In this document: positions 45,925 to 64,000 of the stretch, piece by piece
How positions within the stretch are numbered: position 1 is the stretch's first letter
Layout: every line of letters starts with the position of its first letter
Source: Alphaproteobacteria bacterium
GTDB taxonomy: Bacteria; Pseudomonadota; Alphaproteobacteria; UBA8317
Assembly: GCA_038131935.1 (NCBI GenBank)
Contig: JAYPQH010000030.1
Span: 64,001 to 128,000, forward strand
DNA: 64,000 nt
Direction of reading: 5' to 3'
Notes under the pieces: model-generated
Seen by the model: the letters and a program-made list of their open reading frames with translations, nothing else
Told to the model about the DNA's origin: nothing
The model's database searches: none
Made by a program: the position numbers and the translations under genes

Positions 45925-46076
45925 TATGGTGGATGTTCGTACATTCCTTTTGACGCAAAAAAATTGCTTTACAACTAATATATTGGTACAGATCTTAACC
46001 TAAAGATAGCTTTCGTATTTTACTAAATAGAATTACTATAAGATTATATTTATATATATATTTATGAGAGGCAGCG

Positions 46077-47099
46077 ATGACTGATACGTCAAAACTTGCG
46101 CCAAAAGAGCGTCCATCTATGCCACCTGTTGGCAAACCGTCTGAAGGCATACGTATTGGGTCTGTCACCCTGGCAAGCTTTATTGTTGTGGTGATCGGTT
46201 TGTTCGCCTTTGTTGTTTATGCGATTGATAAAATCGATATGGAGGCAGAGGAGCAATTGTTGCTAGCCACAACGCTTGAGACTGAGGATGGTCAACGAAC
46301 TTCCATATCAGAATTTGTGGCCAAAACAATAGGTGAAGCGGAAGCAGAATTATCGGTTCTGCAAGAAAAACAGGCGGCCATTGTTCCCCTAACCCAACAA
46401 GATGATATTAAGGCCACTGCCGTGGCAAAAGTGCTAGATCTTCAGACGCAAAGCTATTGTACAGCTCTTCATTCCATGCAGTTGGTGAATGATGCCATCA
46501 AACAGGGAACTGTGGAGGTTGCAAAACGTCCCTGCAATATAGAGACCCTGAGTGCTGCTGAGGTGACATCGAGTTATCAAAGTCTTTCGCTTCCAGATAT
46601 GGCACAACTAGCCCAAGATTATCTTGGTGTTTCTCTCGTCAGTGCGTCAACCACAACTGCTGATCCAGGTGTTGAGACGACGAATATTGAGCAACCTAAA
46701 TCTGTTGAATTCGCCACAGAACTTCAACAAGATGCACCTGCTAAGAATGCTGAAGGTCTGAACATCACAGGATCGCTCGAGCAGATTAGAACGCAACTTT
46801 ATGGTGTGGTGACACAGGCCGGAGACGTGATGAGGGGGCTGGTTGCTTCAACAGAGGGCTACGCACAAAACCTAGCGCTTGATATACAACAAACCGTTGC
46901 ATCATGGTGGGGTACATGGGAACGTATGGTAAAGATGGACAGCGGCGTACCTTCAATCAATCAAGACCAAACCAATCAATTGAATGGAAATTCCCTCGGT
47001 TATATGTTGGATTATTTTGATTCCTGGAAAACTTATATCTTTCAGTTCTCCGGTGCATCCGACGCAAAAGAGGGTAACCTTATAACCAGTTCATCTTAA
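46077..47099 (+). CDS. Hypothetical membrane-anchored protein (may extend to 47194 via a frameshift)
   Basis: 340 aa ORF with RBS and N-terminal TM; no family recognised. Confidence 0.7.
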   Translation: MTDTSKLAPKERPSMPPVGKPSEGIRIGSVTLASFIVVVIGLFAFVVYAIDKIDMEAEEQLLLATTLETEDGQRTSISEFVAKTIGEAEAELSVLQEKQAAIVPLTQQDDIKATAVAKVLDLQTQSYCTALHSMQLVNDAIKQGTVEVAKRPCNIETLSAAEVTSSYQSLSLPDMAQLAQDYLGVSLVSASTTTADPGVETTNIEQPKSVEFATELQQDAPAKNAEGLNITGSLEQIRTQLYGVVTQAGDVMRGLVASTEGYAQNLALDIQQTVASWWGTWERMVKMDSGVPSINQDQTNQLNGNSLGYMLDYFDSWKTYIFQFSGASDAKEGNLITSSS

Positions 47100-47413
47100 T
47101 ATCTTTGCTTTCATTCTTGTCTATTTTTTTAAAAACAGGGGCTGTTTGCATGATAGCCCTCATGGTGATTGTTTTTGTCAGTTGGATTGCTTGATTTAGC
47201 AACAACAAAATTGTGTTTTGAGGTTTCTGATGTCATTTGGTTTGATGCGTCAAAGCAAATAGGTTGGTTTTTATTTATTGCAAACCCATGTTTTTAAATA
47301 ATAAATAGGGAAAAAATAGAATATAGAATAAGATGATGTAATCATTAATTTAATGAAAATTGATCTCTCCCAAATTTAATGTGAATATGTTAATGATATG
47401 CTCGAAGTCACAA

Positions 47414-47490
47414 GGTCCCGTAGCTCAGCAGGATAGAGCATCAGATTCCTAATCTGAGGGTCACAGGTTCGAATCCTGTCGGGATCACCA
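47414..47490 (+). tRNA. tRNA-Arg (anticodon CCT)
   Basis: 77 nt, GGTCCCG acceptor, anticodon arm TCAGA-TTCCTAA-TCTGA, GGTTCGAATCC T-arm, encoded CCA. Confidence 0.97.
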
Positions 47491-47563
47491 CTTGCATATA
47501 TGAAAAAACGCAATATTTGTGGTGAAAATTCTTGTGAGAAATTAAATAAAATAACAAAAGTAA

Positions 47564-48286
47564 ATGGTGTTAGGGCGGTATTTTGGGAGAGAAACAATTA
47601 CCAAGATTCATTTTACCCCAGATAATCGAATACTCCCTGAGGAAATAAACCCAAATGATAATGAAAATGTGCTTGTTGTGATTGATATGCAGCGTGATTT
47701 TGTCAAACCGGGAGGCTTTGGGGCGAGCCTTGGGAACGACGTTATCCGTCTGACGGCTATAGTACCGATAGTCCGCCAATTGCTTGTGGGATTTCGAACC
47801 GCAGGTCTTCCTGTTTTTCACACCAGAGAATGCCATGCACCTGACTTATCAGATTGCCCACAAGCCAAACAGATGCGGGGTAATCCCGCACTTAGAATTG
47901 GAGATATTGGCCCGATGGGACGCATTTTGATTGCTGGTGAGCCTGGTGCTGAAATAATACCGGAACTTGCCCAGATACCAGGTGAAATCGTTATTGATAA
48001 GCCTGGAAAAGGAGCATTTTACGCAACGGATTTTGGCGCCATCCTCGAAGAAAGTCGCATGCGTCAATTGGTTTTTGCTGGGGTTACAACCGAGGTATGT
48101 GTTCAGACGACAATGCGAGAAGCAAATGACCGAGGTTACGATTGTTTAGTCGCAACAGATGCAACAGATAGTTATTTTCCAGAGTTCAAAGCCGCTACGA
48201 TTGAAATGATTACTGCTCAATGAGGAATTGTCGGTTGGGCGGCTCCCGTACATGCTATTTTGAGAGCGATTCAAGATGAAACCTAA
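47564..48286 (+). pseudogene. Cysteine hydrolase (isochorismatase family), triuret hydrolase TrtA-like; in-frame TGA at 48221-48223 and atypical N-terminus
   Basis: [43 protein letters not shown]; continues as AQ*GIVGW to TAA at 48286. Confidence 0.72.
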
Positions 48287-48608
48287 ATCATTCATAAATC
48301 TTCTTCCAAATAACTGGGATAGATTGCCATTTGAGCCATTTCGAGAGGGAATAGAAATATACAATCTTTGGTCAGGCGGCCCAAATGTGTCGCTGCTACG
48401 GTATGCGCCAGGCGCTTCAGTTCCTCGCCACCGTCATTTGGGATTAGAGACTATAATCGTACTTTCGGGGAGTCAAAGTGATGAGAGGGGACTCTACGCG
48501 ACAGGATGGATTATCTTTAATCCTGCCGGCTTTGAGCATAGCGTTTGGTCGGAAGATGGTTGTACAGTGCTTATCAATTGGGAAAAGCCGGTAAAGTTTC
48601 TAGATTAG
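48276..48608 (+). CDS. Cupin domain protein (ChrR-like cupin)
   Basis: LLRY.PGASVPRHRH.G.E..VLSGSQSDE, HSVWSE.GC. Confidence 0.82.
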   Translation: MKPKSFINLLPNNWDRLPFEPFREGIEIYNLWSGGPNVSLLRYAPGASVPRHRHLGLETIIVLSGSQSDERGLYATGWIIFNPAGFEHSVWSEDGCTVLINWEKPVKFLD

Positions 48609-49250
48609 TTGGTTTTGGTTTATCGTAATTTTTGCTTCGTAATGTGATTGATACGGCAAAGGCTGGAAAAATTAAATGTGATGACATTCAAAAACAGCCG
48701 ACATGTGTTAAGATATCTCCTTGATTACAATGGATTAAGGTTTTGGTCTCGGTTCAATTCTTAGAAGAATGAAGTAGTAGGTTTTCATTTGTTAAGGCCT
48801 TTATTCCAAATACACAATATTTTGGTTTTGGAGAGATAAATGATCTCGTTAAAGAGCATTTGGAAGAAGAAGATCTGTTGTGTGTTGGTCAATGATATAG
48901 CAACAATGAAATTTTAAAATAATCGCTCAGCTGGTTCCGCTCTATTGACCTTTTCGTTTTTTTCAAAAGACACAATTCCTTTTGATGAAGAAGATTTGTC
49001 CTAAGCGTATCTGGTTAAGTAGGGCATTTGTATTCTCAGAGAAGCTAATTGTCCTTTAGTGGTAAAATCTGAAATGTTGGCATGACGCAGGCAAGTCTAC
49101 TCACGCTAAATGGTTGAAAGCGCAAGCTAGATCATATTTAGCTAATATTGTAGTTCCTCCAGATAGTTGCGGAGCTTCAACAAATATCTGAGCCAAATCT
49201 ATAGCAAATACTTTGGTCAGTGCGAGGTTTGAGATGTGAGTCGAGGAATG

Positions 49251-49649
49251 CTAGTCTTGGATATCGTTTAATTTTGTATTGAACTTTAATTGGGTAATGA
49301 CGTCCAAATTTTCTTGGCTATACACTGTGAATTTTCCGAATATGGGACACCTATCGAAGTGAAGTACATACTGATTGATTTTAACCTTGGGTCCCAATGA
49401 TTCAGAGGATAGCAAATGCCAATCGTTTAGCTTCCCGCACAATTGATTGATGTTCATGTACTGTTGGATAAGTTCATTTGTTTTCCCTGCTCTTGAGAGA
49501 AGGGAACCATTAAACCAAATGTTAACGGCTCTATCAATGAGTCCTTGCTTTAAAGCAGAAAGACCTTCGTCAATAACTGCTTCAGATCGCGCTAACCCGA
49601 AAGTCATCATTAAAATCGCGGCACCAACGATAACTTGTTTCATGTACAT
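49251..49649 (-). CDS. Small exported hypothetical protein
   Basis: Signal-peptide-like MKQVIVGAAILMMTFGLARSEA, 132 aa. Confidence 0.7.
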   Translation of the reverse strand: MYMKQVIVGAAILMMTFGLARSEAVIDEGLSALKQGLIDRAVNIWFNGSLLSRAGKTNELIQQYMNINQLCGKLNDWHLLSSESLGPKVKINQYVLHFDRCPIFGKFTVYSQENLDVITQLKFNTKLNDIQD

Positions 49650-49823
49650 GTCCCACTAACAATTAATATTGTATGATAATCCAGGAATGAAGAATTTACA
49701 TCGAAATAAGTCCCCACAATACTATAGTTGATACATAGAACAACTTACTTTATTGTTTCAGGCAACCCGGTCTTTGTCCAGAGCTGTGGTTTTAGAAAAT
49801 AGCATAGAACTAGGAGAAAACAG

Positions 49824-50570
49824 TTGTTCAAGAAGCTTGTTCCCGTCACAAAAGATGCGCACAAGGCGTTCAAAATGAAACCGCTTGTTGATTTCAAGTT
49901 TGCAGGAAATGTACATTTAGCCTCTTTGATGGCACATGAGTTTGTTCGTGCAGCGTCAGTTTACCCAATAATCTTTGTTGAAGATGGTTCCGATGGGTTT
50001 CGTCCGGTTGCGTTAATGGGATTGGTACCTGAACAAAATCTCTTCATTGATGATGATGGAAATTGGAATGCCTCATACATACCAGCCATTATTCGTCGAT
50101 ACCCATTCGCTCTGGCTAAGTTAGGGGATGGTGATCAGTACACTGTGTGCCTTGATGAAGAAAGCAGTTTATTTGCGAAGAAAGGTGATGGCAAACCGCT
50201 GTTTGATAAAGATGGTGAGCCTACAGTGGTTATAGATAACGTTAAGAAATATTTGACAGAGCTACAGCAAATGGATGTGTTCACAAAAGACTTTTGTAGT
50301 TTTCTGAAAGAACAAAACATGTTCACACTTTTGAACATGCGGGTAGTCGATGATGAGCAGCTAAAAACTATCACCGGTTGTTATGTTGTTAACGAAGAGC
50401 GTTTGAACAACCTATCCGATAAAGCTTTCCTTGATGTAAAACAAAAGAATTTTCTGCCCGCGATTTATGCGCATCTTCTATCTCTATCGCAGGTTGAGCG
50501 CTTGTCTGTGCTTAAACGTGAGAAATTAGCTCAAGCCAGTCTGGCTACAGACAAATCATCTATGCACTGA
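49824..50570 (+). CDS. SapC family protein
   Basis: EF.RAAS.YPIIF, PVALMGL...NLF, YIPA.IRRYPF, VNEERL..LSD, IYAHL.SL; AGGAG RBS before TTG. Confidence 0.9.
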   Translation: MFKKLVPVTKDAHKAFKMKPLVDFKFAGNVHLASLMAHEFVRAASVYPIIFVEDGSDGFRPVALMGLVPEQNLFIDDDGNWNASYIPAIIRRYPFALAKLGDGDQYTVCLDEESSLFAKKGDGKPLFDKDGEPTVVIDNVKKYLTELQQMDVFTKDFCSFLKEQNMFTLLNMRVVDDEQLKTITGCYVVNEERLNNLSDKAFLDVKQKNFLPAIYAHLLSLSQVERLSVLKREKLAQASLATDKSSMH

Positions 50571-50586
50571 ACGTTGAATAAATCAT

Positions 50587-51285
50587 TTAAGAGTGCTGAT
50601 CGTATGTTAAAGAGGAGGATTGGCTGCCATTAAGGTAATGGACACTCGAAATGGCGATTGCGTAGAACAGTTGGAGCCATTTACGATCGTTAAGCATAAG
50701 AGCAGATCTGTCGGGTAACCGATTGAGGCAATTTAAATCAACATAAAAGTACTTATTGCGGGCTGTTGTATCTCCAACCGGTTTCAGTAAGCCAACACGT
50801 GATGCAACAAACCCTAGTTCCTGTGCTTCGCGTAACCCTTTTGCTAACAAACTAAATAAAGCCATAAGGTTTTGGGTTTCTGTGGTGTAATTCCCGTCTT
50901 CAGAAAAAATCGGGAAATATCCAGATTCACAAAAATAGGGAGAATTTTCATCTACAAAGATCTGTGCTTCTTCTTCATTTGAGCCTTTGATCAGAAATGG
51001 GTATATTCTCAGCAAGCTTGGAACTGCACTTAATTTTATAGACCCTTCTTGACAGACCAGTTTGTTCCTCTGATTTGACGCTCCGATAACCACGGTTGGG
51101 GTGAATATGTCCTGCGAGTTTTCATGTCTATGAGTGAATACAATAGGAAAGAAGCCGGATAACGTCCAGATCTCGGATAGCGTAACGTCGATTTCAGAAA
51201 TTTGAAGCGCGAACTTGAAATCTGTGACAGGTGTAAACCGCATATTGCGATGTTTTCTGCTGTTAAGCGGAACGAAGCTAGGCAT
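50587..51285 (-). CDS. Divergent SapC family protein, last gene of the secretion operon
   Basis: VPLN...H, FPIVF, VPSLLRIYPF, L..LPD...YA...S; overlaps the secA-like stop. Confidence 0.75.
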   Translation of the reverse strand: MPSFVPLNSRKHRNMRFTPVTDFKFALQISEIDVTLSEIWTLSGFFPIVFTHRHENSQDIFTPTVVIGASNQRNKLVCQEGSIKLSAVPSLLRIYPFLIKGSNEEEAQIFVDENSPYFCESGYFPIFSEDGNYTTETQNLMALFSLLAKGLREAQELGFVASRVGLLKPVGDTTARNKYFYVDLNCLNRLPDRSALMLNDRKWLQLFYAIAISSVHYLNGSQSSSLTYDQHS

Positions 51286-53194
51286 CCCTCTTCCTTATTT
51301 CTGCCTTATTGAATGGTAGCGCTCGATGGAGCCAATCCTCATTGTCAAGCAGTTTAAGACGCTGTTTAAAAGAATTTTTCTCAAATCGATTTTGACACAA
51401 ACGGACAATACTTTTCATAATTATGCCTTCGAATTTGGGAAACATTTTCAAAACTGTAGAAAGGATCATCATTTCGAATACTCCCATTTGATTGCGGAAA
51501 AGTGCGTCATCTAGGCTCATTAATTTAAGCACACGGCCTGGGTCCCCTTGGCGCCCGCATCTACCGGTTAATTGACGGTCGATCCTAGATGATTCATTTG
51601 GTTCCGAGACAATCACATGCAGCCCTCCTTTAGACAGCGTTGCTTGATCTAATTTAATATCAACGCCTCGACCAGCCATATTGGTGGCAACGGTGACGCT
51701 TCCTGAAGTCCCTGCTTTTTCAATGAGCTGAGCTTCATTATCGTGATTAATAGCGTTTAAGACATTGTGCTGGATATTTAATTCGTCAAATATTTCCGAG
51801 ACCATCACACTATCTGAGACTGTTTTAACACCAACCAGAACTGCCTTGCCTTCTTGCTGGAGTTTTTTTGTTAAGTTTGCGACAGCAAGTACTTTTTGTT
51901 GTCTTGATTTACAGACAATTGGCTGTTCTTCGATTACTTTTCTCTTCCGGTGTCTTGGTATTTGAAGAACAGGAGTGTCGTAGACATGCCAGAACTCGGT
52001 GAAAGACTCTTTGGCAGTGCCAGTTGTGCAGGCAAGCTTTGGAAAGAGACGGAAAAAATTTTGAAAGGTCATTTGTATAAGAGGAAAGTTTGGATCAGTT
52101 AAGGGAACGCCCTCTTTTGTTTCTATGGCCTGATGCAAGCCACCCGAGAGAGTTCGTTCTGGAGTCAGGCGTCCAGTAAACTCGTCTATTAACACGATCT
52201 TTTCATGCTCTACAACATAGTGCACCCCCTTTTGGAAAAGCCATCGTACTTTCAAAGCTTGCGTTAAAAGGTCAATTACGCGCTCTGGACTCTGCCAGCC
52301 AGCAGGAGGCTTATTGCTTGATTTCGACATCATGGTTTCTGCATCGACAAGTAAAGTGACGGTTTTCCGCCTGTGGTCTAGTTTGAAATCTATTGATTGA
52401 CGGAAATTGCTGCTAGTTTTTGACGCCCAAGTTACTGCCTGATGAAGCCCTGGGATGGGTTTTGGGGCAGATATGATTAAAGGTGTCGTTGATTCATCAA
52501 TTAGCATACTGTCTGCCTCATCCACGATGGCGGAATGAATTCCTTTTTCTAGACAGATTAGGCCATCATTTTTTCCTGTTTGCCTTTTGTGCAATAGGTC
52601 TTTTAAAATATCAGCCAAAAGCGTTTTAGGCGTCACATACACCACAGAACTTTGGTAATTCTCCCGCCGAACTTCTGTGGTTTGTGTTTCCACGCACGCG
52701 CCGACGGTAAGCTGAGCATGCTCAAAAAGAGGGGCCATTTCCTCAGCGTCTCGCTGTGCTAAGTAATCGTTAGCAGTTAAAATATGACACGGCTTGCCGG
52801 ACCACCCCAGAAGGACACTGGCCATACCAACAGTGAGGGTTTTGCCTTCGCCAGTTGCCAACTCAGCCAAATAACCCCGGTGTATCGCAAGAGCCCCCAT
52901 GATTTGCTCTTTGTAGGGTTGTAAACCAAGACTTTTCTGGACCAGTATACATATTAGCGCTACACAATCGATCAGACGACCTTTCGCTGTTAATGGGTCG
53001 CGCCGAATTGCCATACGAAGGGATTCCAGTTCTTGGTTCAATTCATCACTACCACTCAATAGAAGTTGTCCCATAAGGGCTGAGACTTGATTAGCTTCAG
53101 TTTCAAGTTTCTTTAGTTGTCTTTTGCTAGATCTGGTCCTCCCGTATAGTTGGTACACGAATGAATCAAAACCTTTTTTACGTTCAGAATTCAT
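51278..53194 (-). CDS. Secondary, C-terminally short SecA paralog (SecA_DEAD protein)
   Basis: ELATGEGKT, TANDYLA.RD, IVDEADS, DEFTGR, GLHQAIE.KE, ATNMAGRG.DI, RID.QL.GRCGRQGDPG; 638 aa. Confidence 0.9.
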   Translation of the reverse strand: MNSERKKGFDSFVYQLYGRTRSSKRQLKKLETEANQVSALMGQLLLSGSDELNQELESLRMAIRRDPLTAKGRLIDCVALICILVQKSLGLQPYKEQIMGALAIHRGYLAELATGEGKTLTVGMASVLLGWSGKPCHILTANDYLAQRDAEEMAPLFEHAQLTVGACVETQTTEVRRENYQSSVVYVTPKTLLADILKDLLHKRQTGKNDGLICLEKGIHSAIVDEADSMLIDESTTPLIISAPKPIPGLHQAVTWASKTSSNFRQSIDFKLDHRRKTVTLLVDAETMMSKSSNKPPAGWQSPERVIDLLTQALKVRWLFQKGVHYVVEHEKIVLIDEFTGRLTPERTLSGGLHQAIETKEGVPLTDPNFPLIQMTFQNFFRLFPKLACTTGTAKESFTEFWHVYDTPVLQIPRHRKRKVIEEQPIVCKSRQQKVLAVANLTKKLQQEGKAVLVGVKTVSDSVMVSEIFDELNIQHNVLNAINHDNEAQLIEKAGTSGSVTVATNMAGRGVDIKLDQATLSKGGLHVIVSEPNESSRIDRQLTGRCGRQGDPGRVLKLMSLDDALFRNQMGVFEMMILSTVLKMFPKFEGIIMKSIVRLCQNRFEKNSFKQRLKLLDNEDWLHRALPFNKAEIRKRDA

Positions 53195-53199
53195 TTTCT

Positions 53200-55371
53200 T
53201 TAGATTCTAAAATGCTTTTGAAGATATTGACTTAATGCTCGATGTATTTGTGAGGCCAATGGTTCTGGAGCAAGCTCAACCCTCAGTGTTGCTAAGCCAC
53301 CATGCATCAGTTTCACATTGGTATCGCCTTCATTGAGCATAATTTTCGATTTAATTTGAAAAAAGGGCTCTGTTGCCTTGAGACCCGTCGGATCTGATGG
53401 TTCTACTGCAATTGAGCCGCCGCCTGGAATGCCGAGGGCTGGGGATGGAAGTATGCCATTATCATGTGGAATTATTTCTAGATCAGTTGTGGTGAGTGTC
53501 TCTCTTTCTTGACCATGTAACTTCAATGTTGTTTCTGCAATAAATGATGCGAAAACATACGTCTGAACCTGTGGGATGACTCCTATAAACTCCCAGGTAT
53601 GATCGTGGGTTACAGTTCCAAGTTGCTGGCCCCGAGCGATGAATTCGCCTGGTGATAACCGCGTTTCATGGCTTGTCCAGATTCCACTCTCTGGTGCTTT
53701 AACCTTGAGTCCTAGAATGTCGTTTTCTATTGTCGTAAGGTATTGATTAACTGAATCCAGTTGTTCATTAATTGGTTCCATTTCGTGTTGATTGTTTACA
53801 AGCGCGTTCTGGAGTCGCTGCTGGAGCTCTTTTTGTTTTGCTTGAGTCGCAGATTTTTGGAAAAAAAGTTCAGGGTTTTCGAGTTGAATAATAATTTGGT
53901 TCGCAACTAATGCAGTCCCGTTGTCTAGGAATTCATCAGAAATATAGCCACTAGTGGTGCTATATACTTTTTGCGTTGACGTAGGTTTTATAATCCCTGA
54001 AACACGGAAGCTATTGTCTACTGGGATGGCAGTAAGTAGAGCTGTGGATGTGACTAAAATCAAGATACTTATACTAAACACTCTCTTCCGCTGGCCATCT
54101 AGACTGTCATCAAATAGAAAATATTTTATCAATTTTAAAAGCGGTACCACAGCAGTTAATATAATGACTGCAATTGCTATGAGTAAGCCCAGATCGAGAT
54201 ACTGATTTGCGATAAAGGCGATTATACCGATCATCAGCGCAATCCAATAAAACATGCTGACAATCCCATAGACTGGAAGGATAATACTCTCGCGAAAGCT
54301 TTGTGCGACTGATTTTGCTCCTCGAACTCCCAAAATATAGCGTTTTGTAAGATATTTTAATTGATTGCGAGACTTCATAAACAAATTAGGTATGTTGAGA
54401 ATATCGACCAAAATATGATAACCGTCGAAACGAAGCAGCGGATTAGCATTGAACAGCACAGTTGATACGCTTGCGGTAAACATAATGTTGTAACAGAAAG
54501 AGTTCAGTAGACCTGGTGCGGTTGCTGACCATATTAATAGGGCTATTGTTGCCACGCCCAATTCAACACCTATGCCAGCTGCAGCAACCAAGAGTCGCTC
54601 CCTCCTGTGTCTGAACCCCCAGCTTGAGCTGGCGTCACAATATGGAATTGGAGTGAATAGGATGAACATCAGACCAATGATGTGAACCTCTCCTCCGAAA
54701 TATTTGCAGAGCGCTCCATGGCCGATTTCGTGGATAGATTTAGTGACAGCGAATCCCATGTAGAGAAGGAACAGGTTATCGAAATCAAGAATCCCCTGTG
54801 AGGGATCGAAGATTATCTCTTTATTATTTAAAAATGTTATAATGCCTGAAACGATAAGTAGGAGATATAGAAATAATCCGATCGGTCCGAACATGAATTT
54901 GATAAATGGAAGTGTTTTATTGAATAACCTATCAGGATCCCAGAGAGGGATTTTGATTGACATAAAACCTAGAAAAGTAGATAGCCGTTCTTGTGATTTT
55001 TTACTATTAAAGCGCTCTATGAAACTCTCGGTGTCCGATAATTGATCATAGATTAACATATTGGAAAGATGCAGTTGCGCTAGGATTTGAATTACTTCTT
55101 CCTGTGAGAGAGTAGTGTTTTGATCGCTTTCTACTGTTTTGTACCAAACTTCCTCTATTGTCTGATCAATGGACATTCTGGCTACAAAATTATATGCCTC
55201 TTCGGAGATTTTAAACCATTCACTGTTCATTCCATCGCGCATCACGTACCAAACCCGTGAGTCAAAAAGCTGCCTTTTTACTTGTACACTGGGACGTAAC
55301 TCACAACGCAGTGAATATACTCGGTGCCAAGAGGAAGAAAAAGTTTGGGTTGATAAGTCGACCGTGTTCAT
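53200..55371 (-). CDS. Fusion of PqqD-like domain, M50 intramembrane metalloprotease and HlyD-type adaptor domain
   Basis: HEIGH zinc motif, AAG, NANPLLRFDG; several TMs; C-terminal coiled coil then APESG lipoyl-like half-motif. Confidence 0.85.
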   Translation of the reverse strand: MNTVDLSTQTFSSSWHRVYSLRCELRPSVQVKRQLFDSRVWYVMRDGMNSEWFKISEEAYNFVARMSIDQTIEEVWYKTVESDQNTTLSQEEVIQILAQLHLSNMLIYDQLSDTESFIERFNSKKSQERLSTFLGFMSIKIPLWDPDRLFNKTLPFIKFMFGPIGLFLYLLLIVSGIITFLNNKEIIFDPSQGILDFDNLFLLYMGFAVTKSIHEIGHGALCKYFGGEVHIIGLMFILFTPIPYCDASSSWGFRHRRERLLVAAAGIGVELGVATIALLIWSATAPGLLNSFCYNIMFTASVSTVLFNANPLLRFDGYHILVDILNIPNLFMKSRNQLKYLTKRYILGVRGAKSVAQSFRESIILPVYGIVSMFYWIALMIGIIAFIANQYLDLGLLIAIAVIILTAVVPLLKLIKYFLFDDSLDGQRKRVFSISILILVTSTALLTAIPVDNSFRVSGIIKPTSTQKVYSTTSGYISDEFLDNGTALVANQIIIQLENPELFFQKSATQAKQKELQQRLQNALVNNQHEMEPINEQLDSVNQYLTTIENDILGLKVKAPESGIWTSHETRLSPGEFIARGQQLGTVTHDHTWEFIGVIPQVQTYVFASFIAETTLKLHGQERETLTTTDLEIIPHDNGILPSPALGIPGGGSIAVEPSDPTGLKATEPFFQIKSKIMLNEGDTNVKLMHGGLATLRVELAPEPLASQIHRALSQYLQKHFRI

Positions 55372-57219
55372 AACCAGAGTAATTTCCGAATAAAATTGAT
55401 CGTGCGATATGTCATCGACCAGATAAGCGGCTGCGAACCTGTTTTGATTTTAGCGGTACCTCCCATACCAGGTCGCCACCAACCCTTTTTGTCTGTCTCA
55501 AATTTACCTTTCGCTACAAAAATATTTGAACCATTTTTTACCTGCGCGATTGGATCGATGCTAGTTAACGTGAATGGAATTCGTTCATCAGGACGCCCAG
55601 CAACCAGTAATTCCCCAGAGAGATCATCGTTTAAGAAATGCATGTCGTTTTGATTGATCTCTAGCTCTAGGTACAGCTCATCTGTATCGGCCAATCGCAT
55701 AAGCATATCGCCACGCTTGACCGGTGAGCCTAGTGCTTGTGTTAAGTCTCCCTCAACAACAATCCCGTTACGTGGCGCGCGAATTTGTGCACTCGCCATT
55801 CGAAACCTAACAAGATCTAGCTTCGCCTGAGATTGGGCGAGTTGAGCTCTCGCAATTTGCAATTCTGCAAACTTGCCCGTTGCAAGAGACCTTTCTATTT
55901 CTGTTTGATGACGAGCAGTTTCCGCGACAGCAACTTTCTCTTCCTGGATTAATTCTCGTATATCCATTTCCACGAGTTTATCATCTTTTCGGACTGAGCT
56001 ACCTAATTCAACATATACGTTTGACAGGAAACCATCGAACGGAGCGGGGATTATTATCGCGTGTACAGCGCGAATTGTAGCTTTTGTATCAATACGATGA
56101 TTAGTTTCAACGGCAAAAAGTGTAGAGAAGATAATGAGACCCGCGATGGCAAAGAGTTTAGCGGTAATTTTTCTAGGGCCAAATAACCATGTAGTTAAAT
56201 TGATAAGTTTATAAAATAACTGGATAACAAAAGGTCTGCTTGAGTTTAAACTTCTCTCTAGAACTGGTCCTAAGGTAGTGACTAAAAATTCAATTTGTTT
56301 TAACTCATTATCATTTGGGTTATTCCCATTGAACTCAAGGGTTAAAACACCCAAGGTATCTTTTAGACCACGTATCGGTATTGACACTAGACTCTGATTT
56401 CCATGATTTCTGGAAAATATTTTATGCTGGCGATATATATAAAAATCCATTTGTTCAGATGGATAGGTGATGACTAGATCTTGGTCAGCGGATTCTTCCA
56501 TGGCGTTGATTAAATCTTGAGCAAGTGAAGATCGTCGATCAAAATTCGCTGATTGACTTATCGCTTTCAGGCTAATTCTTTTTCGAACGAAAATACCTAA
56601 ACTGACCCGATTTGATACCAGATGTGCGGCTAAGGAATTGCAGAGGAAAAAACAGGATTCTAAGAAACTGTCTTTTGAGCAGAGCTGGTAGACTATTGAA
56701 ATTACTTTGTCATTACTCAACCTCAACGGTTGGTCGGTTAAGCTATCCACTAAAGTTTGGTTTGACTTCCCTCCCAGATCGCGAATTGCGAACTCCATCA
56801 TTGTTCTCTGAGCCGGCTGCATTCCAGAGGTGATACTTTTAATTTCAACCCAGGCCAACACGGTGGATCTTTTCCCAAAGGACCCTTTATCGAGAGGTAG
56901 AACATGTAATACCCGAGTTTCATCAACCTGTTTGGTTTGCTTGGTGTCTGTTTGATAGGCTAGTTCACAGGTTTCTAGAAGTTCTGATGCATGGGGTAGA
57001 TAGATCAATTTGAGCTTGAGGGTATTTATGATTTGCCTTCCAAGATTGGGTATCTATCGAACGCTCAAGGTGCAAAACAATTTCAGCCATAAAGCACTTG
57101 TGGATGATGCTCAGGAGATGCACTCTAACCTTTTCATTCTCCATGGTTGAGTCGCTGATCAAATTTAGCGAATATATAAGCGAAGTCTCAATATTTTGCA
57201 CTGAGTTGAGATCATTCAT
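55368..57219 (-). CDS. GAF-domain periplasmic adaptor (HlyD/RND MFP); frameshift at ~56990
   Basis: GAF-like segment (AMEESADQ..., SLVSIPI...LGVLTLE), one TM, APFDG/APRNG lipoyl halves, WWRPGMGG; the 5' ORF MNDLNS overlaps the upstream stop. Confidence 0.82.
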
Positions 57220-58045
57220 TTGATGGCGTTTCATTTGTTGGCCTTAACTCGGCCGGAGTTCCTGGGATGATTTTAAAATCAGAATTATCTACCTCTGCAA
57301 ACAGCTTTCTCAGTCCACTCGCCGCATCTACCAGCGGAGATACGTAAGTTATTAAAGCTCTTCTTTCTACTACTTCTCCATGTTGCATTAACCGGAGGAT
57401 GGCTTCCTCTGTGGCCATGAAACGATAGTCTTGAGATATAGGGAAGGTACCCACAAAGCGGATTGTGGACACGTCGACAACGTTGACTAGTGTTTCTTGA
57501 GGTTGAATGGTCTCGCCTCTTTCGCCATGCACAAATGTAACGACCCCAGTCACCGGTGAAGTTAGTTGTTTTTGCTCGAAATACTGTTCAGCAAGTTTGT
57601 GATCAATTTCAGCTAGCCTCTTTGAAGCAATCAACGACTCCAACTGTGCCTTAGCAGCGCTGAGTGCGAGTTCTTCATCTTCGAGTTGCTTGACTGAGAT
57701 ACCACCCGTTTCAGCTAAAATCCTTCCCTCAGACACTTGTTTGGCTAGCACATCTATTCTTCCTCTTACCTCTCTTAATTCGGATTGGTCTTTCAAGATG
57801 ATCCACTTTCTTTGACGTTCCAAATTTTCAATTGAGCGATCCAGTTCTAGTAAGACTTCTCCAGCTGTTATCTGATCACCTTCAGTAACAAATATTTTAT
57901 CGATAGTCCCTTGCACTGGAAAGCTTAAACTAGCCTGGCTCTTGGGCTCTGTGATACCAATTGCAAGCCCTTCTCCATAAGCAGACGAAATATAACAAAG
58001 ACATAGAAAGGTGGGGAAAATAAGCTTGGGTAGGTAGTGACCCAT
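57212..58045 (-). CDS. Efflux RND/HlyD periplasmic adaptor subunit
   Basis: Signal peptide, LSFPVQGTI..V.EGD, coiled coil, SPVTGVV, SPLVD..SG. Confidence 0.88.
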   Translation of the reverse strand: MGHYLPKLIFPTFLCLCYISSAYGEGLAIGITEPKSQASLSFPVQGTIDKIFVTEGDQITAGEVLLELDRSIENLERQRKWIILKDQSELREVRGRIDVLAKQVSEGRILAETGGISVKQLEDEELALSAAKAQLESLIASKRLAEIDHKLAEQYFEQKQLTSPVTGVVTFVHGERGETIQPQETLVNVVDVSTIRFVGTFPISQDYRFMATEEAILRLMQHGEVVERRALITYVSPLVDAASGLRKLFAEVDNSDFKIIPGTPAELRPTNETPSNE

Positions 58046-58046
58046 G

Positions 58047-59573
58047 TCACTTTTGTCCAAAAATGTTGTTGACCTGCTCACTCAAATCCCCTTGCGCTGA
58101 GTAAAGCTGAATGAAAGCCTTTGCATATTGGGTCGACGCTTCAACTTCATTAATAGTTGCTTCTAAATTTTTCTCCTCAGACTGCAAAACCTCGATTATG
58201 TTTCCTCTGCCTTGCGCTAAACGTAACGAGGCTACTTCGAGTTGTTTTTTTGTTGAGTTAGCAATTTTTCTGGCGTTGAGCCACACTTTCTCTGTCTGAA
58301 GGGCTGTCTTGTGGCCGACTAAAACTTCATTTTCAAGGTTTTGTCGTTGGCCTTGAAGAAGCAACTCTGCTTTACGTTTTTCCAGACTGGCCTTTCTAAT
58401 CTTGGCATTGGCACCTTTGTTGGCGCCCAATGGCATCCTGTACTCTATCGATATTCGGCGCTCTGGATGGCCAGCCATGTCGTTAATCCTCAATGCGCTG
58501 GTGGCAGTTCCTGCTTGTTGAGACCATCCGGCATCCAATCGAATATCGAGTGTGTCACGAGCCATATCTGACGCTTGGTCAAGTTGAAGCAGGGCACGTT
58601 TGATCGCAACTTTTTGTGCTTTGATGTCGTAACGAGTGTTGAGGGCTACGGTATATAGTTGTTGCCAATCTGGTATGTGATAGATCTCTGTCGGGAGTAT
58701 CGATGGATCAAACTGGATTTTATCCACCGTAAGGTTTCCTTCGGGAGCAAGAAGGATGAGTTCGGTTTTGAACCGTATCAAGTCTCGTTCAGTATTTGAT
58801 ATCAGATTCTCCAGCTTATTCAGGTTGATTTCGATATCAATTTCAGACGATCGCGGAAGACGTCCATTTCTGATTAAGGTACTGACCTCCGTTTTGAGTT
58901 TTGTTAAGATGGCTACGCGGGCTTTTAACCTTTCCAAGATTAGTTGGGTTTTTAAGGCATCTATATAAACGATTGCGGCCTGTGTGGTGATCAGGTTCCG
59001 TTGGTCGAGGGTTAAGTGTTCTTGAATTTTAGCTTCCAATTCAGCGATAGCAATATCCATGTTGGTGATTTTGGCTCCTGCACCGCGCATCAGTGGCTGA
59101 ACAATAGATAACCTTAAGTCACTTCGGTACTGATAGTTGTCCATGGTGCCGGCTTTCTGCCTGTTCAAGGATGAATCAATCGAAATCTTCGTGCCGTAGC
59201 TCAACAATTTTGAGACTGTGCCCTTCAAGTCAGTTTGTTTATCAGGATACGGGTCTGGTGATCTTCCTAATAACTGATCTTCAACCGAGAGCGGTGATAG
59301 GGTGTTCCCTGCTGATGATCTTACTGTCAGCTTCGGTTCATAGATCCCAAACTGTTCAATAATATTCTCGCGAGCGACTTCTTCATCAAGCTGCGCCATT
59401 ATGAGTGATCTATTTGAGTTCAGAACCGCATTCAGGAACATTTCAAAGGAGAATGCTTCGGACTTGCCCATAGGTTGACTAGCCAACGAAGGGTTGTGTA
59501 GCCCGAGGCAGAGTGCCAGGGAAAAGTATGTGAACAATTGTCTGTTACAGCCGCAAAATGAACGAGCATTCAA
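58047..59573 (-). CDS. TolC family outer membrane channel (start uncertain, 59573-59681)
   Basis: VQPLMRGAG, helical OEP repeats, P-L-G-N motif, QG.GNIIEVLQ; first gene of the operon. Confidence 0.85.
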   Translation of the reverse strand: MNARSFCGCNRQLFTYFSLALCLGLHNPSLASQPMGKSEAFSFEMFLNAVLNSNRSLIMAQLDEEVARENIIEQFGIYEPKLTVRSSAGNTLSPLSVEDQLLGRSPDPYPDKQTDLKGTVSKLLSYGTKISIDSSLNRQKAGTMDNYQYRSDLRLSIVQPLMRGAGAKITNMDIAIAELEAKIQEHLTLDQRNLITTQAAIVYIDALKTQLILERLKARVAILTKLKTEVSTLIRNGRLPRSSEIDIEINLNKLENLISNTERDLIRFKTELILLAPEGNLTVDKIQFDPSILPTEIYHIPDWQQLYTVALNTRYDIKAQKVAIKRALLQLDQASDMARDTLDIRLDAGWSQQAGTATSALRINDMAGHPERRISIEYRMPLGANKGANAKIRKASLEKRKAELLLQGQRQNLENEVLVGHKTALQTEKVWLNARKIANSTKKQLEVASLRLAQGRGNIIEVLQSEEKNLEATINEVEASTQYAKAFIQLYSAQGDLSEQVNNIFGQK

Positions 59574-59940
59574 AATAAATGGTCTCAGCCGGCGCCAAAA
59601 AAATAGTTCAACATAGCTTGTTCCTACTTCAACGAAGTTATTGTCGATTCCAAAAAGCAATACTTCAAGGATTTTTCCCAAGAACGCTTTTTTTGACGTG
59701 TGAGCGAGCTACCTTTATTTTTCTTATTTCTGATCGCCATAAATCCTCGTTAAAAACACCCAATTATCGTATGAATTATCCATGCATTCCTCACACCACT
59801 CGATATTATAAATCCTTCAACAAATAATTCTACCCAACTGCCAATAAATTCCATATATTGGATCAAGGAAAAAAATAAACCAATAAGTTATTGAAATATA
59901 AATTCTATTTTCGGAGCAGGGCAGGGGTTTTAATTGCTTG

Positions 59941-60601
59941 TCATCTGAGATCATCAATTACACAGGTGCTCATTAGCTCCACCATCAAACTCATCAATTC
60001 GCTTTGATTTTGGGCAAGATCTTGATCAATTTTTATCGCATAAAGATAAACAGCCAGAACGTTAACGACACCGTTACACTTCCCACGATCCATTCTTAAG
60101 CCATGTTTTGCAAAATTTCGGTTAAACCCGTCGCAAATCAAATCGACCTGACTCGGTACATGGGTCATCACCTTTGAAAACGACCTTCTAAATGAGTCAG
60201 AATTATCGACGACACGAGGTGTTTTGGCAGCTTCATGTCCATCGCCAGCGAGTACCGAGCCAACATCTCAAAAAATTGCACAGGGTCTCGCCGCGGAAAT
60301 TGTCGATTTGTAGTGCCAGGCCACGCAGGAAAGAATTTGAGCCAAACTTGTAGCTGCTAAGCAGAAAATCGGGCATCGATTTCCAATTTTTATAGAATGT
60401 TGAAAACCCATATCCAGCTTTCGTGAGAATCGTTCTGATCGTGTAGCGTTTTTCGTCTTTTCCTTCTGCCAACGAATATATTAAAGCGGCTCTCATATGA
60501 TCAGCCGGCGTATGGGAGTGATCTACAGTATCAGACAGAATTTTCTTAAGGCTTTCGTCTACCTTGAATTGCTCGTTTTTGTGAATACTGTCGTTCGACA
60601 T
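59941..60601 (-). CDS. TetR-like transcriptional regulator; two apparent frameshifts (~60284, ~60178)
   Basis: HTH YTIRTILTKAGYGFSTFYKNWKS; adding one base in each of two short runs gives one ORF of about 220 aa. Confidence 0.6.
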
Positions 60602-61118
60602 AGTACATGGATCTCCTTTTATGGCGATAAACAATGGATGAATGGTTACCTGAAAACTTGATCGCAATCCCCACTCTGCCACTGCTATATTCACTGCACG
60701 CAACAAAAAAATAAGAAAGGATCAGCTCAACGAAAAGAATTCAAGGTACAGTGTGTAATTTGAAAAATAACACCCATAAAGCGTAAATTGGTATGGCTGT
60801 TTTAGCAATGCTGTCTATTTTTTACTTGGCAAAGGTGGAATAGCATCTTGCCCAAAATCAAAACGAATTGATCAATATGATGCTGGAGCTAATCAGTCCT
60901 TGTTTGGTTGATAATTTGCCCTATTCAGCAATTAAAAGGTTTGCTGTGCTCCGAGATTATTTATTATATTTCAATTCATTAACGGTATTTTTTTTTGTTT
61001 GATCCAATTAGCTTTATTCTTTGTTAAATGGGTAGAATTATTTATCGGAGAATTTATACTGCTATGTTGTGGAAAAGATGTGAAAATTGTGTAGCAGTAG
61101 TGCATTAGACGAGAATTG

Positions 61119-64000
61119 ATGGCGGCAAAAGGTAAAAAAAATAGACGTAGCTGGCTTACGCGTCAGAAAAAGCGTACATGGGAGAATTCTCGAAGTCTGG
61201 TTGACCGCCTAGAAGACAGGATTTTATTGTCGGCCGATCCTCTGCTTCAGGCGGTGCGTATCGCCTCCGATAGCGAGCCAAGCATAATTTTTGTTGATGC
61301 GGAACAACAAGCCACCACCGTTGAGGTTACCAACAGCAATGTTGGATCGATTTCGCTGGATCTTACATCTCTTGGTGATATGGCGAACCAGAATCCATTG
61401 CTAACGCCGATCGATACAGACTTGGTCCGTCTAGACGCAACCATGCTCGCAATCGAGCTTGGTTTGGGCGATGCCAGTTTGACGGACTTGTCGCTCTCTC
61501 AGGAGAGTGATGGCACGCTTAGGCTTGGTGGTGATGGCGTTGTTGATCTGCTGTTCCAAGCACCAACTGAGAGCCTTGTGATACGTGGAGGGTTGGGTCT
61601 TGATTCGATAGAGCTAGAGTCTTTTTCGGTAGCTACTGCGGACATATTTATTGAAGCGGAACATATCAAGGTTGGTGAGGCAGCAGAGATATCGGTAGGC
61701 GGAGCTCTGACTTTGAATGCCATAGCGGGTTTTACTGAACGCCACACCGGATCCTTAGACGCACTTGCACTAGCCTTTGCCGATTCAACTTACAGTTCTT
61801 CAATCGAGGTTGACGGTAAAGTTTCGGTCTCTGGTGGGATGGTATTTGCCGCAGAAACTTCCCTTGCGCTAGATATTGATCATCAAGGCGATATAACGCC
61901 AGCCATACTGCGTCCAGAATTAGTCTCTGTTGCGTACATTGGAGCGAGTGCCGAACTTAATGCTGGTTGGTTGGAGCTGACCTCTGAAACTTCAGCTGAT
62001 ATTGAGGTGGATGTTGACGGAGGTCTGGGCGTTATCTCGATAGACCTAAACCAAGTTAGTAGGTCGATGGTTTCAGGTGGTGCTAGCCTTCATCTCCATG
62101 AGAATGAAGGCGGGACAGTTCTTCTTGTCGATTCGTTTGGTCAGACCGGCTTAGATGCGCGATTTGCGCCAATTATCAATGATGGTGACCTGCAGGGATT
62201 GATGGCCGGCCAGGATAAAACAACAGATACTGCTGGTTTTGATTTGGCTTATGCTGATTTTGCTATCAACAGAGATGTTTCTGCTGTCCTGGGTGATGGT
62301 CTAGACGTTTTGACAATTGGATCTCTAGATCAGCCAATAGCTGGTAGTATTTCAGTTGGTGCCGGCGCTCTAAATCTTGGTGACGCGGGTCTGAGTGTCT
62401 CCATCGATTCAGACATCACTGGATTGCAGTTGCTGACAGTCACCGATCAAGTCTTGGCGGAAATAAGGCGTGCAGAACTTGACGTGTTTGATATTGAGGT
62501 CCTTGCATATGCTGGCTCGTCAGCGGACTCAACGTCCAAGGTGGTTCAAAATCAGATGTATGGTTCTGTAGTTGCTAGAGTTATAGACTCTAGGCTTGGC
62601 GCCTCAAATGACATCTCAATCTTGGCTACAGATAACTCGACTTCCAGCGCGTTATCCTCCGATTTTGTGGCATCGGGTAGTCAATTGAAAGGCCTTGATA
62701 TTGGTATTGCTTACGCAACTAACCTTTGGTCAAGAGATATTTTGGCTCAGATCATCAATTCGGATGTGACCAGCTCCAATCTTTATTTGGAAGCGCAGGC
62801 ACTTGCCATATTAGACGCAGAAGTTGGGTCTCAAATTGTAGCCGAGGTAACGACGGGCGAGTCTGACCCAAGCTTTTCTATGGGGGGGGCGGTTGCCTCG
62901 AATGAGGTGATGGGCCAGGTCCATGCGACGACGTCCGGTGGCTCTATTAGCGTTAACGGACTCTCTGTCCAAGCTTCCAATCTGATCTCTTTGCATTCCG
63001 ATACCGCCGCGGGTGCGGCATCTGCAGGTGATACCTCGTCTGCATTGGCGTTATCCTTTAATTTAATTGGATACACGATGACCGGAACCGTCGGTATGAT
63101 TGCTGATTCAATACTGGGTGTGGATTCAGGGATCAAAGCAATGCCGCTTCATACCCTTGCTGAACTTCTTGATACTGAGGTGACCGTTAGCGGTGATATG
63201 ACGGTCGATGCTCGCAACGCGCTGTCGGTCAATTCATCCATCGACAGCTCGATCATGGCTGAAGTCGATGACCTGAGCGAAGCAATTGCAGTGGGTGCTG
63301 CTGTTGCATTGTCAACCAACCGATATACGAGCTCTTCAGTCACACGGATAATGGGTATATCAACCGGCCAGGCACGGCCATCATTGATCGTTGGTGGCGA
63401 TCTTTCGATTTCAGCGACAGACGAATCTGAGATCCTATCAAGTTCAGATGTTAGCGTGAATTCATTGGGTGGTGGGATTGCAGCAGGTGCGCTTATTTCC
63501 AATAACCATGTTGATCGAGACGTATTGGTCGACCTATCTAACCGTGACATAGACGTTACTGGAACACTCTCAATGGCTGCACTATCGACCGGTATCCTGC
63601 AGTCGGCTGTAGAAGGTATTATCGAATTACCTGGTGCAATTTCATCGACCGAGCAAGGAGTCGATGATGGTTTAGGTATGAATGCTTTGGTGGCGTCTAA
63701 CACAATGTTGGGTTCAACCATAGTCCAGTCCGATCAGTCAAATATGAATATCGGCGGTGATTTACTGTTGTCTTCAAAAACTTCAGGTTCAATTGATGCA
63801 ACTAACAGTGCTCTGACGTCGTCCTCGGGTCGTTCGGCCGGAGTAACAACAGCTTTTAATTCTATCGGATGGCAGTCGCAGAGCTTTGGCTCTCATTTGG
63901 TCGATGGACTCCTTGGTTCTAGGCTTGCTGATCAAGATCCGCTCAACACAACTGTTGATCTCGATGCGAGTGACATATCGATCAGCGGTGATCTTAATAT
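61119..64000 (+). CDS. Large repetitive exoprotein with N-terminal LEPRxLL-type motif (3' end outside window; not in the ORF track)
   Basis: Manually translated open frame of 960 codons from ATG 61119 to the window end: MAAKGKKNRRSWLTRQKKRTWENSRSLVDRLEDRILLSADP..., rich in S/G/A/D/V/I/L. Confidence 0.9.
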   Translation, partial: MAAKGKKNRRSWLTRQKKRTWENSRSLVDRLEDRILLSADPLLQAVRIASDSEPSIIFVDAEQQATTVEVTNSNVGSISLDLTSLGDMANQNPLLTPIDTDLVRLDATMLAIELGLGDASLTDLSLSQESDGTLRLGGDGVVDLLFQAPTESLVIRGGLGLDSIELESFSVATADIFIEAEHIKVGEAAEISVGGALTLNAIAGFTERHTGSLDALALAFADSTYSSSIEVDGKVSVSGGMVFAAETSLALDIDHQGDITPAILRPELVSVAYIGASAELNAGWLELTSETSADIEVDVDGGLGVISIDLNQVSRSMVSGGASLHLHENEGGTVLLVDSFGQTGLDARFAPIINDGDLQGLMAGQDKTTDTAGFDLAYADFAINRDVSAVLGDGLDVLTIGSLDQPIAGSISVGAGALNLGDAGLSVSIDSDITGLQLLTVTDQVLAEIRRAELDVFDIEVLAYAGSSADSTSKVVQNQMYGSVVARVIDSRLGASNDISILATDNSTSSALSSDFVASGSQLKGLDIGIAYATNLWSRDILAQIINSDVTSSNLYLEAQALAILDAEVGSQIVAEVTTGESDPSFSMGGAVASNEVMGQVHATTSGGSISVNGLSVQASNLISLHSDTAAGAASAGDTSSALALSFNLIGYTMTGTVGMIADSILGVDSGIKAMPLHTLAELLDTEVTVSGDMTVDARNALSVNSSIDSSIMAEVDDLSEAIAVGAAVALSTNRYTSSSVTRIMGISTGQARPSLIVGGDLSISATDESEILSSSDVSVNSLGGGIAAGALISNNHVDRDVLVDLSNRDIDVTGTLSMAALSTGILQSAVEGIIELPGAISSTEQGVDDGLGMNALVASNTMLGSTIVQSDQSNMNIGGDLLLSSKTSGSIDATNSALTSSSGRSAGVTTAFNSIGWQSQSFGSHLVDGLLGSRLADQDPLNTTVDLDASDISISGDLN

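Follow-up and report, generated by a model that had tools for sequence, protein, structure and literature searches.

A candidate leader-dependent export machine for giant LEPR-XLL proteins, centred on an RRE-site-2-protease-HlyD fusion

How do bacteria export proteins that range from 2,000 to over 30,000 residues and have neither a Sec signal nor an ABC exporter? This question is raised by a locus at the end of a 64,000-nucleotide stretch of alphaproteobacterial DNA (the window), which corresponds to positions 64001-128000 of contig C30 (158,301 bp) in an assembly of 2.48 Mb that is 89.9% complete. Here, a minus-strand operon encodes a TolC protein, three HlyD-type adaptors (one of them fused to an M50 protease-like domain), a short SecA paralog and a SapC protein, and is transcribed divergently from a gene whose product begins with a LEPR-XLL leader. 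The locus probably encodes machinery dedicated to the leader-dependent maturation and export of the giant, acidic, cysteine-free proteins encoded beside it, a reading we favour with some reserve. The core module is already published, as is the hypothesis that SecA is its ATPase and M50 its membrane pore: Kamneva, Poudel and Ward (PLoS One 2015; PMC4452313) proposed both for a SecA_DEAD module without an ABC transporter. The original prediction for this stretch had correctly cited that study as describing SecA_DEAD loci related to type I secretion. The available part of its text reports GAF domains in homologs, leaves the substrate unnamed, and contains no occurrence of “giant” or “SapC”. A literature search, with subscription journals and bioRxiv supplements outside its reach, returned that study alone for the module and no work joining LEPR-XLL proteins to it.

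The link between machine and cargo is well supported by comparative sequence evidence. In a phylum sample of 401 genomes from 212 genera, in which at most two M50-HlyD candidates were scored per genome, the LEPR-8K family is present in 57 genomes (35 genera) and the M50-HlyD fusion in 97 genomes (51 genera). The fusion occurs in 53 of the 57 genomes with LEPR-8K, versus 44 of the 344 genomes without it, so that the cross-genome linkage of module and LEPR-XLL proteins on which the original prediction leaned is strong. Of the four LEPR genomes without the fusion, one has a 64-residue frame, one matches the motif in part, and two have a completeness of 69% and 86%. Among 90 LEPR matches, 40 share a contig with an M50-HlyD gene, 38 of them at a distance of no more than 50 kb; several of these genes span about 30 kb.

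The linkage is also positional. A total of 600 pattern matches in species-representative genomes yielded 538 confirmed relatives, from which the best 80 loci were kept; their record titles name Verrucomicrobiota, Pseudomonadota, Planctomycetota, Fibrobacteres and Lentisphaerae. The order TolC, HlyD, GAF-HlyD, M50-HlyD, SecA paralog is recurrent over these loci. M50-HlyD has a GAF-HlyD ortholog on its upstream side in 65 of 67 loci. The SecA paralog comes directly after M50-HlyD in 59 of the 65 loci for which 2 kb or more of sequence is available downstream; L087, counted among the six misses, has the paralog nonetheless. A regular expression for the LEPR motif gave 24 matches in the 80 loci versus 5 on reversed sequences. 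A hidden Markov model built from the matches recovered 20 open reading frames (ORFs) at 30 bits or above, with the next best at 5.8, and one further sequence (L014, 6.9) was taken by eye as a variant. This amounts to 21 LEPR N-termini in 20 of the 80 loci, each opening a large ORF that directly adjoins the module. Where 3 kb or more is available on both sides (34 loci), nine loci have a LEPR ORF, and 14 more have a flanking cysteine-poor ORF of at least 1000 residues whose start falls outside the locus. The fusion itself is abundant: more than 1818 homologs of about 720 residues were found among 8000 candidates scored, and 5,817 clusters (50% identity) are matched at E <= 1e-30.

The ORFs of the window were screened against Pfam and NCBIfam, with the following result for the locus.

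49824-50570, plus strand: SapC-1 (PF07277, E 5.9e-67), convergent on the operon
50587-51285, minus strand: SapC-2 (PF07277, E 4.8e-34), last gene of the operon
51278-53194, minus strand: SecA paralog, 638 residues (SecA_DEAD 3.3e-75, PPXD 4.8e-20, P-loop_SecA 6.5e-41)
53200-55371, minus strand: M50/HlyD fusion, 723 residues (NF041824 daptide_HExxH, E 1.1e-51)
55368-57008, minus strand: HlyD protein with a weak GAF domain, 546 residues (HlyD_D23 E 1.5e-13, GAF_2 E 0.0061)
57212-58081, minus strand: plain HlyD/biotin-lipoyl adaptor, 289 residues (TIGR01730, 96 bits versus a cut-off of 94.9; Pfam)
58047-59681, minus strand: TolC/OEP (OEP E 4.6e-16)
59670-60025, no strand: left arm of an inverted duplication, a copy of the cargo upstream region and its first ~26 codons
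60233-60706, minus strand: 157-residue ORF between the duplication arms, no family
60845-61190, no strand: right arm of the inverted duplication, cargo promoter region and leader codons
61116-64000, continuing to position 130650 of contig C30, plus strand: LEPR-XLL cargo gene, 1844 residues (NF012209, 25.1 bits versus a cut-off of 17)

The gene content read earlier from the bare sequence was recovered in full, from TolC through the adaptor, the GAF-adaptor, the M50/adaptor fusion and the short SecA paralog to SapC, with a second SapC (SapC-1) converging on the operon and a leader-bearing protein, matching NF012209 above the cut-off, encoded divergently from position 61116. The genes had also been described as tightly coupled. 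From TolC to SapC-2 the junctions are a 35-nucleotide overlap, a 203-nucleotide gap, a 4-nucleotide overlap, a 5-nucleotide gap and an 8-nucleotide overlap, the 203-nucleotide gap being that before the 546-residue HlyD protein.

The fusion consists of an RRE (PqqD-like) domain at residues ~20-110, an M50/site-2-protease-like membrane domain, and an HlyD-type periplasmic adaptor at residues ~450-721. Its protease motifs are HEIGH at 214-218 and NPLLRFDGY at 310-318, and H214, E215, H218, N310, P311 and D316 are invariant in 25 fusion homologs. [quoted passage not shown] The AlphaFold 2 model of the fusion (mean predicted local distance difference test, pLDDT, 82) begins with a domain of strands followed by helices; the membrane domain is helical, and the adaptor at the C-terminus matches MexA, MacA and AcrA. 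A PDB profile search of the fusion returned adaptors and a marginal match to the site-2 protease 3b4r (E 0.25), and Foldseek with the whole fusion returned adaptor proteins alone.

When the N-terminal domain was modelled alone (pLDDT 78), its fold matched RRE domains that bind leaders, namely lasso B1 (6jx3_B, Z 9.4 over 84 residues at 3.2 A), TbiB1 (9.1), TigE (8.9), PqqD (8.8) and the RRE of PbtF (7.8), as well as MccB, MibB, LynD and NisB. The label “PqqD-like” in the original prediction is thus backed by fold comparison, although Pfam does not recognise PqqD in the N-terminus of the fusion. In the available part of its description, the daptide enzyme joins an RRE to a site-2 protease and cleaves off a leader with the motif ELExMEAP (10.1101/2023.03.08.531785). 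Fold and homology together support the fusion as a predicted leader reader and leader peptidase, and the leader-peptidase role foreseen for it fits the RRE fold, the intact HExxH and NPLLRFDG motifs, and the homology to the daptide RRE-site-2-protease.

The putative cargo starts with a basic stretch that has no hydrophobic core, followed by ...SLVDRLEDRILLSADP (motif at nucleotides 61200-61262). The 24-residue LEPR-XLL model NF012209 (LEPR-8K) matches residues 29-49, with 29.8 bits when the genome as a whole is searched, and the only LEPR match over the cut-off in the genome is this gene adjoining the module. The protein (1843-1844 residues) contains no cysteine and has an isoelectric point (pI) of 4.05, a composition that may be compared with that of substrates that must stay unfolded. 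Pfam finds no family and no RTX domain in it or in the downstream ORFs. As for its earlier designation as giant, the first ORF has just 1844 residues and ends 2.6 kb past the window, but an ORF of 6328 residues follows in the same frame, separated from it by a TGA, five codons and a second TGA (15 nucleotides apart). This second ORF carries LktA_tand_53 repeats. Co-directional ORFs of 422, 643 and more than 1981 residues come next and extend to the contig end (C30 125116-158301; L005, L006). All ORFs of the cargo region are acidic (pI 4.05-5.06) and nearly cysteine-free, and some basic tails appear out of frame. The chain of 1844, 6328, 422, 643 and more than 1981 residues may be a single giant gene that is broken or misassembled, or else several genes in an array.

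The leaders fall into two dialects that follow two subtypes of the module. In the phylum sample, matches to the fusion separate into strong, full-length ones and a weaker set of 150-330 bits. Eleven weak-type loci beside LEPR genes (L088-L098, from genomes G046, G077, G123, G292, G138, G164, G136, G317, G083 and G322) contain a giant ORF, one or two HlyD genes and M50-HlyD, with no SecA paralog; TolC lies nearby once, and the genes downstream are unrelated housekeeping genes. Two LEPR genes of complete genomes that had seemed to be orphans likewise lie near M50-HlyD or HlyD genes. Of the 37 leaders at SecA-containing modules (one a duplicate), all carry an acidic residue (35 Glu, 2 Asp) two positions ahead of LE.R, versus none of the 14 leaders at SecA-less modules. 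Conversely, an Asp directly after the motif is found in all 14 of the latter and in one of the 37 former. The SecA-less dialect can be written LALEPRx(L/M)(L/F/Y)D(A/G)A. The complete genome G006 has both dialects, each beside its own type of module. Given that dialect tracks subtype, these results argue that the module recognises the leader cognate to it.

The SecA paralog has the architecture NBD1, PPXD, NBD2, with the ATPase motifs TGEGKT, DEADS, TGTA, NMAGRGVDI and GRCGRQGDPG intact. It aligns with positions 8-603 of a 789-position SecA model, hence the C-terminal part of SecA is missing; we take this part to be the wing domain and the two-helix finger. The paralog scores below the cut-off of every SecA and SecA2 model of NCBIfam: 473 versus 800 for TIGR00963, 412 versus 930 for TIGR03714, 329 versus 725 for TIGR04221, 429 versus 1085 for TIGR04397, and 312 versus 1100 for NF012136. 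The canonical SecA of the genome is on contig C18, separate from this paralog and from that of a second module on contig C8. The paralog is plausible as a motor that pushes the cargo in the SecA-containing subtype. In one related locus (L074, 12143-15523), M50-HlyD is followed by a 490-residue ORF of no known kind and by a 636-residue ABC_tran protein in the usual position of the paralog. A conserved substitute in the S-type loci that have no SecA was considered and rejected: the downstream genes of L040, L066 and L075 are housekeeping genes, and just L074 has ABC_tran.

The operon had been described as free of ABC, C39 and RND components. ABC and C39 proteins are indeed absent from it; no RND pump was found among the ORFs scanned with Pfam and NCBIfam, a scan in which RND was not searched for by family. 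The sequence past the 64 kb, which the original prediction left to be scanned for an ABC exporter, contains none over the remaining 30 kb of the contig, and any ABC-ATPase-like ORF is found in the flanks of just three of the 80 related loci. Matches to ABC_membrane are confined to contigs C37, C18, C1 and C33, with none on C30 or C8, and Peptidase_C39 has no match in the genome at its 89.9% completeness. On contig C33 (69875-73442), TolC-like frames, one with internal stops, lie beside an ABC_membrane protein; the pair is probably a separate, conventional ABC/TolC system.

We propose the following course of export. The LEPR-XLL leader of the cargo (...VDRLEDRILLSADP) would be bound by the RRE of the fusion in the cytoplasm, as its fold and homology suggest. 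By analogy with the daptide peptidase, the M50 site-2-protease-like domain would cut off the leader, probably where the conserved motif ends. The truncated SecA paralog, with its ATPase motifs and preprotein-binding domain, might then feed the unfolded chain through the inner-membrane assembly, which is the weakest step of the scheme. Finally, domain content and gene order suggest that the three HlyD-type adaptors (plain, GAF-fused and M50-fused) would bridge to TolC for passage in one step.

An alternative is a two-step route, in which canonical SecA/SecYEG takes the cargo across the inner membrane, the paralog is a targeting or holdase factor, and the M50-HlyD protein and adaptors serve later as leader or anchor peptidase and as periplasm-to-TolC conduit. 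It would accommodate the LEPR modules without a SecA paralog in genomes that have canonical SecA alone, and a paralog that retains the preprotein-binding domain and not the C-terminal part of SecA. However, the 22 aligned leaders consist of a basic stretch followed by LE.R, with no hydrophobic core typical of Sec signals; the RRE precedes the first membrane helix in the model, which would place it in the cytoplasm; and HlyD/TolC systems form continuous one-step conduits according to the available part of a 2021 review (PMC8277102). We consider this route unlikely. The same module could instead be a device for regulated proteolysis or retention, in which a GAF sensor and a site-2 protease control release or anchoring of the giant protein while an ABC-type type I system elsewhere exports it. 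Site-2 proteases classically act in regulated intramembrane proteolysis, the adaptor here has a weak GAF-like domain, the homologs of Kamneva et al. have GAF, and a TolC-like gene is paired with ABC_membrane on contig C33. Yet three adaptors and TolC in one operon are ill-suited to a pure protease switch, the genome has no C39 peptidase, the cargo has no RTX or other Pfam domain, and the ATPase gene is conserved in position; we therefore hold this explanation to be quite unlikely.

The kinship of the protease part to RiPP leader peptidases, its closest named relatives, could also mean that the module exports a small RiPP-like peptide and that its adjacency to giant genes is incidental. This is very improbable in view of the strong genome-level and positional linkage to LEPR-XLL proteins and of the agreement between dialect and subtype. 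Moreover, no RiPP-modifying enzyme is present among the window ORFs scanned, a scan in which short precursor ORFs were not searched for.

Several results weigh against the export machine proposed here. Contrary to the original prediction, in which the SecA paralog supplies the push, a second class of LEPR-linked M50-HlyD modules is devoid of any SecA paralog. In five of five complete genomes of that class, the only SecA is the canonical one (frames of 932-991 residues). Either the paralog is unneeded for LEPR export, or another motor acts there; since SecA-less LEPR-linked modules exist, the paralog is no universal requirement. The score of 176.1 bits for the fusion against NF041824 is below the equivalog cut-off of 300, which makes it a homolog and not a member, and Pfam Peptidase_M50 reaches 17.5 bits with a cut-off of 27.2. 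The Z-scores of about 9 for the RRE are modestly over the background of 7-8 stated for the tool, and Foldseek with the N-terminal model returned nothing at E <= 0.001, its top rows being RRE proteins with E 0.015 or weaker. In terms of distribution, TolC is missing from 17 of 50 loci (present in 33), no candidate cargo is found in 11 of the 34 well-flanked loci, and the 44 LEPR-negative genomes still have M50-HlyD; the co-occurrence counts are inflated by relatedness, the genomes not being independent. Lastly, the GAF-HlyD protein of the window may be truncated and the ORF chain of the cargo is interrupted by stop codons and shifts of frame, so that part of the locus could be decaying or misassembled.

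A broader proposal can be made, on which we are evenly divided. LEPR-XLL would be the export leader of an unnamed family of envelope-spanning secretion systems, in which recognition and removal of the leader both fall to an RRE-site-2-protease-HlyD fusion, one subtype has a truncated SecA in place of the ABC motor of type I secretion, and each of the two machine subtypes has its own leader dialect. Many of the largest bacterial proteins known would take this route, including the symbiosis proteins of 20,000-36,000 residues of Chlorobium chlorochromatii. In the available part of a study of that organism (10.64898/2026.03.19.712371), Cag_663 and Cag_665 have LEPRxLL N-termini and flanking sapC and tolC genes, the LEPRxLL giants give an immunogold signal in the partner cell, and a horizontally acquired secA is co-expressed; the term “M50” does not occur in that part of the text. 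Giant proteins of Omnitrophota differ in arrangement, with SecA-like domains inside the giants themselves, according to the part available of their description (10.1101/2023.11.21.568195). If the proposal is true, TolC-coupled secretion has a new solution for energising and gating, the LEPR-XLL tag is explained, RiPP-style leader recognition is tied to protein secretion, and giant adhesins or effectors that are secreted could be predicted from sequence by a simple rule. Verrucomicrobiota, Pseudomonadota, Planctomycetota and other groups have the module, which is very common. Its culturable carriers include Methylobacterium extorquens AM1 (META1p2399-2402 according to Kamneva et al.), Pseudomaricurvus alkylphenolicus KCTC 32386 (L069), Marinobacter suaedae chi1 (L084) and Thiomicrospira microaerophila ASL8-2 (L056).

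The genome has a second module on contig C8 (L007 1-15273), in which the gene order is the same: SapC, TolC, HlyD, a split GAF-like HlyD, M50-HlyD and SecA paralog. The two SecA paralogs are 38% identical. About 6 kb of cysteine-free acidic ORFs in shifting frames precede it, one of them with a match to a hemagglutinin repeat, and probably represent the end of a further cargo gene. The GAF-adaptor of the window is an HlyD adaptor with a cytoplasmic N-terminal domain and one membrane helix. Its earlier naming stands for the HlyD domain and the conserved ortholog, but the GAF signal is weak (GAF_2 E 0.0061). The 203-nucleotide gap upstream points to an N-terminus that is longer or has been frameshifted. 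The two GAF-like HlyD genes of the genome both appear interrupted, that of the window (55368-57234) by this gap and an overlapping ORF of 89 residues, and the C8 copy (L007 9251-11196) by a split into ORFs of 395 and 287 residues, which could be due to assembly error or gene decay.

SapC is a lineage-specific accessory, present in 12 of the 80 related loci. The two SapC proteins of the window, SapC-1 and SapC-2, reach 225.9 and 118.3 bits against PF07277, whose gathering threshold is 28.9. By tblastn, SapC-1 is 65% identical to the SapC that heads the module on C8, and SapC-2 is a divergent paralog, 25% identical to SapC-1. SapC has no solved relative by sequence, and the ESM Atlas gave no usable match.

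The inverted duplication is about 350 nucleotides long and imperfect, with segments 74-82% complementary. The left arm is now upstream of the TolC operon, and its copy of the cargo start still has an ATG and a frame of 38 codons, which is not that of TolC. Since the first ~30 codons of TolC lie within this copy, the true TolC start is probably downstream of the listed TTG. The duplication may give cargo and machine a common control region, an inference only. A scan for promoters and terminators over 49000-61400 gave counts not over those of shuffled controls (26 versus 23.8 and 15 versus 10.7, respectively). The inverted repeat was also considered as a mobile element, an idea rejected for lack of another copy in the genome. 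Between the arms, the 157-residue ORF has no Pfam match, no NCBIfam family and no homolog in the 80 related loci, and could be a local regulator or spurious; the 89-residue ORF has no Pfam match. The GC content is 0.40-0.44 over window positions 46000-62000, versus 0.45-0.49 in the rest of the window, and the locus may have been acquired horizontally. Just upstream, at 47564-48608, lie an isochorismatase-family gene and a gene for a ChrR-like cupin, with no apparent tie to the locus.

Among known systems, the closest is the module of Kamneva et al., which in the available part of its description has in common with this locus a short SecA_DEAD protein besides canonical SecA, a weak M50 domain with HlyD, a GAF-HlyD protein, an HlyD/biotin-lipoyl protein, sometimes OEP, and no ABC transporter. 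The RRE domain, the LEPR-XLL leader and the SecA-less sister modules go beyond that part of their account.

Classical type I secretion (HlyB/HlyD/TolC; LapBCE-type) is alike in its HlyD-type adaptors and TolC, in its giant, acidic, cysteine-poor and repeat-rich cargo, and presumably in its one-step passage. Its substrates have a C-terminal signal. The present locus differs from it in having no ABC transporter or C39 domain, three adaptors and not one, an N-terminal leader, and no detected RTX domain. In the peptidase-containing ABC transporters (PCATs) of bacteriocin export, recognition and cleavage of the leader are coupled to ATP-driven export. The logic here is alike, with the activities placed on unrelated proteins: RRE and M50 for C39, and a SecA-like ATPase for the ABC ATPase.

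SecA and SecA2 systems share with the paralog the NBD1-PPXD-NBD2 architecture and all ATPase motifs, although the paralog has just 638 residues, misses the C-terminal third, is below all cut-offs, and sits in an HlyD/TolC operon. The daptide enzyme DapP/MpaP (NF041824) shares with the fusion the RRE fold, HExxH and an alignment over nearly the whole model, and the daptide leader motif is loosely like the ExLExRxLLSA(D/E)P of LEPR leaders. Unlike DapP/MpaP, the fusion includes an HlyD adaptor, its presumed substrate has thousands of residues, and there are no daptide-modifying enzymes nearby. Relative to characterised secretion systems, the module is a marked variant.

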